Virus record (IMG/VR): IMGVR_UViG_2579778797_000013
Length of the DNA stretch: 5,458 nt
From: a virus
Taxonomy: Duplodnaviria; Heunggongvirae; Uroviricota; Caudoviricetes
Reading direction: 5' to 3' (one strand)
The notes beneath the pieces are model-generated. The model made no database searches. It saw only the letters and a list, made by a program, of their open reading frames with translations, and had not been told where the DNA came from. Below, in pieces: positions 1,954-3,333 of the stretch. The number at the start of each line of letters is the position of its first letter. Position 1 is the stretch's first letter. The position numbers and the translations under genes were made by a program.

Positions 1954-3333
1954 TTACACAATGCGTTGAAATAACGTTAAGTTTGTTGTCATGGTCTGCT
2001 CATCGTATCCGGGAGCACCCAGACTGAAAGCAGACACAAAAGCCCGCCATGTCCCCGGGATACTGTTTCCGGCATTATGAACAATCGAGAACGTGGGCGA
2101 ATACGTGACGCCAACGCGGTAAAGAATCGCCACTTCAGTAATTTTTTCGCCACTGATATTCTCTTTAATTGCACTTTCACTTTCGAGAGTCGATATCGAA
2201 CCAAATAAGAAAGAGCCAACCGCATATTTTTCTGTGGATACATTACCATTCCTGCCTGCTGCCCCCTGCGGCCCTGCCGGACCACGAGGACCTGCCGGGC
2301 CGGTTTTCCCCTGCGGCCCCGCGGGACCTGTTGCTCCGGGTTCGCCTTTGTCCCCTTTTGGCCCCGGGGCACCTTTGGCTCCGGCTGCACCAGCCGGTCC
2401 CCGTGGGCCTGCGGGCCCCACTGCACCAGGTGCGCCAGGTTCCCCCCTGTCCCCCTTCGGTCCGGGGACTGCTGCCCGGGTTGCTGCCTCTTCTGCCTTC
2501 GTTTTTGCTGCCTGCACTTCTGCCATTACCGCTTTCACAGCCTTTGGGGTTGCCGCTTTTGTTTCATCATCGCTGTTGGTATCGCTGCTCAGCTGTACAA
2601 CACCTTTCTGTGATGTGCTGGCATCCGGAACACTGGCGACACTGCCTGCGGGACCCGCAGGACCTGCGGGGCCGGTTTCTCCCCGAGGGCCTGCGGGACC
2701 CTGTGGTCCGGGTGGTCCGGCCTCTCCACGTGGGCCGGTGTCACCTTTCGGCCCCGGCGGTCCGCCCGGGTCACCTTTATCGCCCTTCGGTCCCTGTGGA
2801 CCTGTTTCTCCCCGTTCTCCCTTTGGCCCCGGCTCACCTTTTGGTCCGACCGCCCCCGTTGCCCCGGCTGGTCCCTGTGCCCCTGTGGCACCCTGTGGAC
2901 CTGTGTCCCCCTTCTCGCCCGCCGGTCCCCGGGCATTCTCTGCCCGTTTCTTCGCTTCCTCTGCACTCGCCGCCGACGCTTCAGCACGCTTCAGGATTTC
3001 CGCTGCCACCACTTCCAGCTCTGCAAGCGCTTTCGGGTAATACTGCGCCTCATCCTGTTCCATCAGAAATTTATTCAGCGTTCCCGGCTCAGAATCCGCC
3101 TTCACCAGAATGTCACCCACATACGACGGGGCGTACCCTTCCGTGTTCAGCGTCACCCGGTACCACCCCGGCTCCACATCAAAACTGTAACTGCCGGTTT
3201 CCCCCGGCTGCCCCTGCGCCACCGTGGTGACAATCACTGTCTCCGTGGTGCGCAGGGCTTTCAGTTCAATGGTGCATCCCGGTACCGGCTTCCCGGTGCC
3301 GTCCTTCAGCACGCCCGATATTCTGACTGTCAT
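1954..3333 (-). CDS. stf: Side tail fibre protein with collagen-like Gly-X-Y repeats (459 aa); lambda Stf-like N-terminal domain
   Basis: ATG 3333-3331 preceded by GGGG (3344-3341) with 7-nt spacing; stop TAA at 1956-1954. The N-terminus [26 protein letters not shown]... closely parallels the lambda Stf N-terminus ([25 protein letters not shown]...) as I recall it. An internal [28 protein letters not shown] segment parallels lambda Stf [28 protein letters not shown]. Two long G-X-Y blocks (aa 136-230 and 291-363) are rich in Pro, Lys, Glu and Ala. Confidence 0.88.
2245..2463 (-). repeat. Collagen-like Gly-X-Y block 2 of stf (aa 291-363; 24 uninterrupted triplets)
   Basis: Direct reading of the translation, with Gly at every third position from G291 to G363; end codons checked against the nucleotide sequence. 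Confidence 0.85.
2644..2928 (-). repeat. Collagen-like Gly-X-Y block 1 of stf (aa 136-230; 31 triplets with one interruption at G190-G-P-P-G194)
   Basis: Direct reading of the translation; I checked the codons at both ends against the nucleotide sequence. The DNA is GC-rich with recurring short motifs such as cctgcgggacc. Confidence 0.85.

Follow-up and report, generated by a model that had tools for sequence, protein, structure and literature searches.

Collagen-like proteins encoded by prophages of Escherichia coli were sorted in 2012 into architectures designated EPclA to EPclD (Ghosh et al., 2012; PMC3368898). The EPclC architecture, PfN-Col-Pf2-Col, ends in a C-terminus unrelated to the PfC domain and often lacks the PCoil segment; the lengths of collagen (Col) segments differ by multiples of three, and the first Col of proteins with two of them bears a single conserved G-X-P-G-G-P-X-G interruption (PMC3368898). 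Table 3 of that paper lists ORF-401 of strain ECOR-9, from prophage P-EibA, with 479 amino acids (aa) and collagen lengths of 117 and 75 (PMC3368898). EPclA and EPclB were shown there to be trimers that are very stable to heat and give a collagen signal in circular dichroism; their PCoil and PfC domains trimerise, and by electron microscopy they have the shape of a hinged dumbbell (PMC3368898). Here we describe a related gene in IMG/VR virus record IMGVR_UViG_2579778797_000013, assigned to Caudoviricetes, of which a stretch of 5,458 nucleotides (nt) was analysed and is referred to below as the window. The gene, stf-like and located at nt 1954-3333 of the minus strand, very probably belongs to an E. 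coli prophage of the lambda-like, P-Eib type and encodes a homotrimeric side tail fibre of the EPclC class, working in the manner proposed in the last section. It is an ordinary member of the class published in 2012, whose architecture, interruption and triplet variation were already known, and what the present comparison adds is incremental: a fixed breakpoint in the second collagen block (Col2), co-variation of the fibre tip with the DUF4376 protein encoded next to it, constancy of the first collagen segment (Col1a), and degeneracy of the repeats in the collagen-encoding DNA.

The other system of reference is the side tail fibre (Stf) of phage lambda. In the Ur-lambda tail tip (PDB 9E7M), residues 1-94 of gpStf constitute a collar domain present in 12 copies, from four trimeric fibres, at the gpV/gpM junction, and Stf as a whole is laid out as collar, flexible linker, proximal coiled coil (residues 102-393), hinge (394-422), distal coiled coil (423-525) and receptor-binding end (PMC12617516).

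Architecture, class and reading frame of the fibre

A preliminary description, made from the bare sequence, had read the gene as a lambda-type side fibre that retains the Stf attachment domain and a conserved KGVVQLSS...TPKAVK segment, with two Gly-X-Y blocks flanking the latter, one register-shifting G-G-P-P-G interruption in the first block, a short C-terminal domain, and spurious open reading frames (ORFs) in the five other frames. All of these elements are borne out by database comparison and direct scanning, which delimit the following features:

1954-3333, minus strand: coding sequence of the stf-like side tail fibre, 459 aa, PfN-Col-Pf2-Col-PfC2, with an ATG start and one uninterrupted ORF
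3061-3333, minus strand: collar or tail-attachment domain, aa 1-91, predicted from a match to PDB 9e7m_Ta, the Ur-lambda gpStfN chain (E 3.6e-28)
2929-3060, minus strand: linker and short Ala/Glu/Lys-rich helical segment, aa 92-135, within PF08400
2758-2928, minus strand: Col1a, 19 Gly-X-Y triplets, aa 136-192 (direct scan)
2752-2769, minus strand: P-G-G-P-P-G interruption, aa 189-194, in which one inserted residue displaces the glycine register
2638-2754, minus strand: Col1b, 13 triplets, aa 194-232 (direct scan), site of a seven-triplet insertion or deletion (indel)
2494-2619, minus strand: Pf2 phage tail fibre repeat, aa 239-280 (PF03406), a non-collagen node between two putative triple helices
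2239-2463, minus strand: Col2, 25 triplets, aa 291-365 (direct scan), holding, near nt 2370 (close to aa 321), a mosaic breakpoint shared by several alleles
1957-2238, minus strand: C-terminal tip, the 'PfC2' of Ghosh et al., 94-96 aa, aa 366-459, beta-rich (delimited by position and alignment of tip types)

The protein matches the tail fiber family PHROG 366 (E 7e-106), and its parts match PF08400 (PfN; aa 1-134, E 1.3e-41, 142 bits against a cut-off of 26.6 bits), PF01391 (collagen; four stretches, E 4.5e-26) and PF03406 (Pf2; aa 239-280, E 3.4e-16). Identity to lambda orf-401, the N-terminal part of Stf, is 52% over aa 1-129, and that of the KGVVQLSS...TPKAVK segment to lambda Stf aa 339-390 is 56%; in lambda this Pf2 counterpart sits directly before the hinge at 394-422. 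The Pf2 region also weakly matches the tail fibre protein S of phage Mu (5yvq_A, residues 106-154). No similarity was found between the fibre protein and lambda orf-314, the distal part of Stf (best E 0.031). The helical segment before the first collagen block (Col1) is a probable short trimeric coiled coil, by analogy with lambda Stf and the PCoil of EPclA. The window fibre shares with Ur-lambda Stf (PDB 9E7M, 9MGH) the collar, as judged by sequence match, the Pf2 segment, a position downstream of J, and the order J, stf, downstream gene on one strand, but differs in having a Gly-X-Y shaft where lambda has coiled coils, an unrelated 94-aa tip in place of the gp37-like OmpC-binding distal region, and a DUF4376 gene instead of a lambda-type Tfa of the PF02413 kind.

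The assignment to EPclC follows from the published definition, as PF08400, the Col-Pf2-Col order, a tip other than PfC and the interruption in the first Col are all present. The closest described relative is the ORF-401-like protein of P-EibA (AAF63232, from AF151091, ECOR-9), 94% identical overall and about 98% outside a single gap of 20/21 aa, with the same PfN, G-G-P-P-G-bearing Col1, Pf2, 25-triplet Col2 and LFQRIV tip, from which the window allele differs in lacking seven Col1b triplets (63 nt at nt 2700). EPclA and EPclB of E. coli O157:H7 (for example ECs2717 and Z1483) have in common with it PfN, collagen of the same X/Y composition and whole-triplet variation, and EPclB also the Col-Pf2-Col order with the conserved interruption; they differ in carrying a PCoil of 109-116 aa before the collagen and a PfC (PF06820) end, whereas the window fibre has a helical segment of about 35 aa and another tip.

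The collagen blocks consist of 57 triplets (19 + 13 and 25) with Gly at every third residue and Pro-rich X and Y positions, and 57 glycines in strict register cannot have arisen by chance. Pro and Asp/Glu occupy 47% and 25% of X positions and Lys/Arg and Ala 28% and 25% of Y positions, much as in the profile published for collagen-like proteins of E. coli prophages (Ghosh et al., 2012, Table 4; PMC3368898). At the rise of 0.288 nm per residue given by Ghosh et al. (PMC3368898), Col1 (97 residues) would measure about 28 nm and Col2 (75 residues) about 22 nm. The sole irregularity in Col1 (aa 136-232) is GDPGGPPG at aa 187-194, with KGD triplets on both sides of the interruption, in keeping with the reported enrichment of KGD/KGE salt-bridge triplets beside collagen interruptions (PMC11923368). 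The motif G-X-P-G-G-P-X-G recurs in 18 of 120 homologues, and the register shift may produce a kink at G-G-P-P-G. In the second copy of the gene in NCTC9112 (L003), a Gly position of Col1a reads Cys at aa 186 (KGDKCDPGG) in an allele that is otherwise intact, which is either a sequencing error or a substitution tolerated beside a natural interruption.

Gly-X-Y stalks without hydroxyproline joined to a small trimerising globular domain are also the plan of Bacillus anthracis BclA (1WCK) and streptococcal Scl1/Scl2. One alternative is that the gene is virulence cargo, encoding a collagen-like surface adhesin (Scl/Lcl/BclA-like) that is expressed by the lysogen and is no part of the virion. It adjoins an Eib/YadA-like adhesin gene, itself cargo, and gives partial NCBIfam matches to SclB, SclA and Lcl, yet these matches are confined to the collagen part and fall far under the curated cut-offs (110, 99 and 87 bits against 325, 400 and 500). 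Unlike the window fibre, BclA and Scl sit on the surface of cells or spores, carry sorting signals and have Thr-rich repeats; weak matches to them fall in its collagen part, with no homology outside Gly-X-Y. Together with a sequence devoid of signal peptide or anchor, an N-terminus that corresponds to the Stf collar domain as on the lambda tail, and a location within the tail operon, between J and DUF4376 on the same strand, this makes an adhesin extremely improbable.

The GC-rich Gly-X-Y coding leaves stop-free stretches of 106-353 aa in each of the other five frames of 1954-3333, and the preliminary description had noted that its reading would fail if one of these were the true frame. The Gly-X-Y frame is the true coding frame, as one ORF joins PfN, Pf2 and the tip, third codon positions of that frame account for 11 of 15 and 10 of 13 substitutions relative to close alleles, and all indels between homologues are of whole codons, nearly all of whole triplets. 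The overlapping ORFs at 2169-3230 and 2234-3040 on the plus strand and at 1989-2426 and 2589-2987 on the minus strand were rejected as candidates, for none carries a domain and the third-position bias contradicts them. How such spurious frames come about is shown by a database allele, P0008, in which a frameshift in Col2 is followed by about 90 codons of the 1989-2426 frame. Another long spurious frame is found in the lambda reference annotation itself (NC_001416, 5148-5768), where an antisense 'orf206b hypothetical protein' lies within orf-401 (stf).

Triplet number and the collagen-encoding DNA

Full-length alleles occur in eight complete E. coli genomes, where they are annotated as 'prophage tail fiber N-terminal domain-containing protein'; they are 98.8-99% identical to the window gene at the nucleotide level and fall into two length classes, 1380 and 1443 nt, distinguished by a 63-nt, seven-triplet segment of Col1b at window nt 2700. 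Among nine alleles that share the N-terminal module of the window, Col1a numbers 19 triplets throughout, Col1b 13, 15 or 20, and Col2 25, 31, 33 or 38. Constancy of the first collagen block extends to the wider set of 120 database homologues, with 19 triplets in 112 of 116, and in one sister class, uniform in tip type, the last collagen block comes in 17 different lengths, from 24 to 72 triplets. Related loci in IMG/VR proved to be largely genes of EPclA type (437 aa, 37 triplets), not close EPclC alleles; among these prophages the EPclA length classes already published, of 27, 32, 36, 37 and 38 triplets, are found again along with several frameshift-truncated forms. Frameshifted or split collagen-like fibre alleles are common, as in P0008, SCU-104 (L087) and the IMG/VR loci L015, L025, L026, L037 and L047, and numerous tip-domain entries in databases are 'partial' fragments at contig ends; both observations suggest that multi-copy GC-rich repeats often break short-read assemblies.

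The preliminary description had proposed that the GC-rich repeats favour in-frame expansion or contraction, and had called for triplets to be counted per block across alleles, identical numbers being what would speak against it. That count reveals in-frame, whole-triplet differences between alleles, and to this extent the proposal stands. Slippage of microsatellite type is less well supported, since the repeats are degenerate and recombination fits better. Tandem Repeats Finder scores in the collagen DNA do not exceed 44, the direct-repeat families are 60-77% identical, and no exact direct repeat exceeds 14 nt, a length reached by 24% of shuffles that kept every codon in its own class of Gly, X or Y position; at the edges of the 63-nt indel stands only an imperfect repeat of 11 nt (GGTCCgGCAGG / GGTCCcGCAGG). 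Slippage as the main mechanism was accordingly set aside on the low scores, the degenerate families and exact repeats no longer than those of shuffles. The repeated 10-mers are all spaced at multiples of three (24 of 24), 13 of them at multiples of nine, and carrier genomes have a median of three matching places. We favour a scheme in which length would change through unequal or illegitimate recombination at in-register microhomologies, together with homologous exchange between co-resident prophages; preference for recombination over slippage reflects how short and degenerate the repeats are.

The strongest form of the slippage idea would make the collagen region a contingency locus, at which tandem 9-nt repeats allow frequent switching of fibre length within a strain, in the manner of phase variation. 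Whole-triplet length variants among near-identical alleles are what such a locus would produce, and the in-frame 10-mers, over half of them at multiples of nine, could be its substrate; but degenerate repeats with the scores and identities just given, a longest exact repeat as expected from codon shuffles, indel edges that share just 11 imperfectly matched nucleotides, a Col1a fixed at 19 triplets in nearly all homologues, and the association of variants with mosaic exchange with other prophages leave it an unlikely account.

Gene neighbourhood and exchange of the distal cassette

What the window covers is the distal part of a tail operon of lambdoid type, with J, stf-like and DUF4376 genes all on the minus strand, followed by a cargo gene. 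Its features outside the fibre gene are:

3703-5458, minus strand: gpJ tail tip protein, C-terminal 578+ aa (Pfam Ig_J, Ig_J_second, Phage_Tail_Tip and Ig_GpJ_C), running off the right end
3334-3702: J-stf spacer of 369 nt, without an ORF in the ORF list
3346-3382, minus strand: hairpin followed by U8, terminator-like, reaching to within some 13 nt of the stf ATG on its 5' side
1368-1940, minus strand: DUF4376 protein of 190 aa, encoded at the place of tfa; homologue of ORF-191A (PF14301, PHROG 1141)
1337-1356, T-run on the plus strand: GC-rich hairpin GGGGGTGAGGCATCACCCCC directly 3' of the DUF4376 stop codon
886-1, minus strand: Eib/YadA-like trimeric autotransporter adhesin, first 295 codons (MNKKFSKTILSSAVAGLLLVSGGGLAAE...), with a signal peptide, cut by the left edge of the window

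The order J, stf, DUF4376, eib is likewise annotated in P-EibA (E. coli ECOR-9, AF151091), with ORF-191A as the DUF4376 gene, and in several complete E. coli genomes, although the window as a whole is not contained in any complete genome of the collection, the best being NCTC9112 with 77% covered. No Rfam family was detected in the window.

The mosaic make-up of the window is direct evidence of exchange: nt 2370-5458 match one represented by NCTC9112_b at about 99%, and nt 1381-2700 match that of P-EibA and 99RCEF at about 96%. In each of five alleles bearing three other tips (LFQRAY-type and a TIKTE-type), resemblance to the window breaks off at nt 2370, about ten triplets into Col2; in two of the five it resumes near nt 1700, within the DUF4376 gene. 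The DUF4376 protein (PF14301, E 1.2e-20) is itself divided along these lines. In a comparison of loci L001, L003-L005, L086, L088 and L089, identity over its first 75 or so aa is 99-100% between loci of one tip type and 22-30% between loci of different types, whereas its C-terminal 115 aa are 79-87% identical in six of the seven, the other being S1-CAM-02 (59%), where the C-terminus is disrupted beside an IS21 element. From the breaks at nt 2370 and about 1700 and the co-variation of tip and DUF4376 N-terminus, the exchanged unit is, on these alignments, distal Col2, tip and the 5' part of the DUF4376 gene, and joint exchange of the tip and the DUF4376 N-terminus argues for their interaction. 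An identification of the DUF4376 protein with lambda Tfa was rejected in view of its lack of similarity to lambda orf-194. In Tfa proteins of the lambda and Mu type, the order of modules is the reverse of that in the DUF4376 protein, with its tip-specific N-terminus.

Common to four to six tip types are the motifs (Y/H)(A/S)(V/I)G, PG(T/S/V)W and LFQR, and the types differ in the intervening parts; the window tip has YAVG..., PG(T/S)W and LFQR in common with three or more others. Searches with the tip against Pfam (including matches up to E 10), PDB sequences (single-sequence and profile) and NCBIfam gave nothing meaningful, and PF06820 (PfC) was found neither in the whole protein nor, up to E 10, in the tip alone. 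An exhaustive phmmer search of 1.84 billion representatives returned two clusters only, a word-indexed single-sequence search two matches, and a profile of six tip types 28 proteins, many of them partial and all the named ones from E. coli; one full-length homologue, P0031, is from Citrobacter farmeri. AlphaFold2 models of the tip from alignments of 11 and 26 sequences are all-beta at low confidence (predicted local distance difference test scores of 58.1 and 47.9), and Foldseek comparison of the better one with the PDB gave nothing below E = 1.9; no conclusion on the fold is drawn, the models being unreliable. The tip is presumed to be the trimerisation nucleus and receptor-binding end of the fibre because of its position, its variability and the analogy to PfC and other fibre tips.

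Upstream, the J-stf region has a history of its own. The gene lom, present between J and stf in lambda, P-EibA, NCTC9112_a and 99RCEF, is missing from the 369-nt spacer of the window, an arrangement shared with NCTC9112_b, 2012EL-2448 and SCU-104. The J C-terminus (about 170 aa, 3703-4210) belongs, like the spacer, to the NCTC9112_b lineage and has no match in lom-containing loci, so the receptor-binding end of J appears to have been swapped as well. Kept in lom-containing relatives is the hairpin at 3346-3382, which has a predicted folding energy of -22.8 kcal/mol (z -4.3; equal stability in 0 of 200 shuffles), and the GGGGA after its U8 is a likely ribosome-binding site of the stf-like gene. 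The hairpin resembles an intrinsic terminator and, as such, would shield stf from upstream lysogenic transcription unless antiterminated. At the other end, the hairpin at 1337-1356 may terminate transcription in both directions, of the tail operon on one side and of the eib-like cargo gene on the other; an AT-rich gap separates the latter from the DUF4376 gene. Eib/YadA-like adhesins are cargo of P-Eib-type prophages; that of the window resembles EibA at the stalk end alone (34% over 85 aa), has a passenger domain different from that of P-EibA, and over this domain (nt 170-816) finds no match in NCTC9112_b, otherwise the closest locus.

The rearrangements bear on a further alternative, that the gene, intact in appearance, is left over from a defective prophage, kept only by recent descent, its product no longer assembled into virions in this strain. 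A missing lom and a J-stf spacer rearranged relative to P-EibA could be marks of decay, family members are often frameshifted (EPclA* among them), and IS elements adjoin related loci. A relic is nonetheless improbable: the 459 codons run on without a break, despite long alternative frames that illustrate how little it would take to disrupt them. Third positions have taken most of the substitutions, J and DUF4376 on either side are intact, and the lom-less arrangement recurs in several genomes.

Proposed working and significance

If the gene encodes a functional EPclC fibre, as we consider very probable, it would work as follows. The N-terminal 91 or so aa would fold as the Stf collar and clamp the fibre at the junction of tail tube and tip, an arrangement established in Ur-lambda and extended here by homology. 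The short helical segment at about aa 100-135 would gather three chains, and Col1 and Col2 would then form collagen triple helices that replace the proximal and distal coiled coils of lambda, as the properties of EPclA and EPclB suggest. Bending would be expected at two points, where G-G-P-P-G shifts the register within Col1 and where the Pf2 node parts Col1 from Col2. At the far end, the 94-aa tip would nucleate zippering of Col2 in the C-to-N direction and carry receptor specificity, and the DUF4376 protein, whose N-terminal 75 or so aa co-vary with the tip, may act on or with it through this tip-specific part. In evolution the shaft changes its length by whole Gly-X-Y triplets, and the collagen DNA would also be the homologous joint for exchange of cassettes between prophages.

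Several points weigh against this account. The triple helix, the trimeric state and the incorporation of the EPclC protein into fibres are extrapolated from EPclA/B and lambda; neither a structural nor a family match was found to back a receptor-binding tip, for which the models are of low confidence; and a chaperone role of the DUF4376 protein is deduced from position and co-variation. Frameshifted alleles occur elsewhere in the family (P0008 and the truncated EPclA forms).

A more far-reaching interpretation, which we offer tentatively and regard as rather doubtful, is that the collagen DNA is more than a spacer and forms part of a specificity cassette of two genes as its inherent site of recombination, with the DUF4376 N-terminus as a tip-specific adaptor and whole-triplet changes as a by-product that tunes the reach of the fibre. 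Were it true, the PfC2 knob and the DUF4376 protein would constitute a previously uncharacterised pair for fibre-tip function and assembly.

The practical value of the window allele is limited, as it is one further allele of a documented family. For annotation and assembly it is a reminder to be cautious, as stop-free alternative frames abound and one single-base frameshift, as in P0008, gives a plausible-looking alternative protein. What the comparison does provide is a quantification of how the family diversifies, by whole-triplet length change and by swaps of tip cassettes at a collagen-encoded joint, which is of relevance to the prediction of prophage host range in E. coli and to the choice of junctions for engineered chimeric side fibres.

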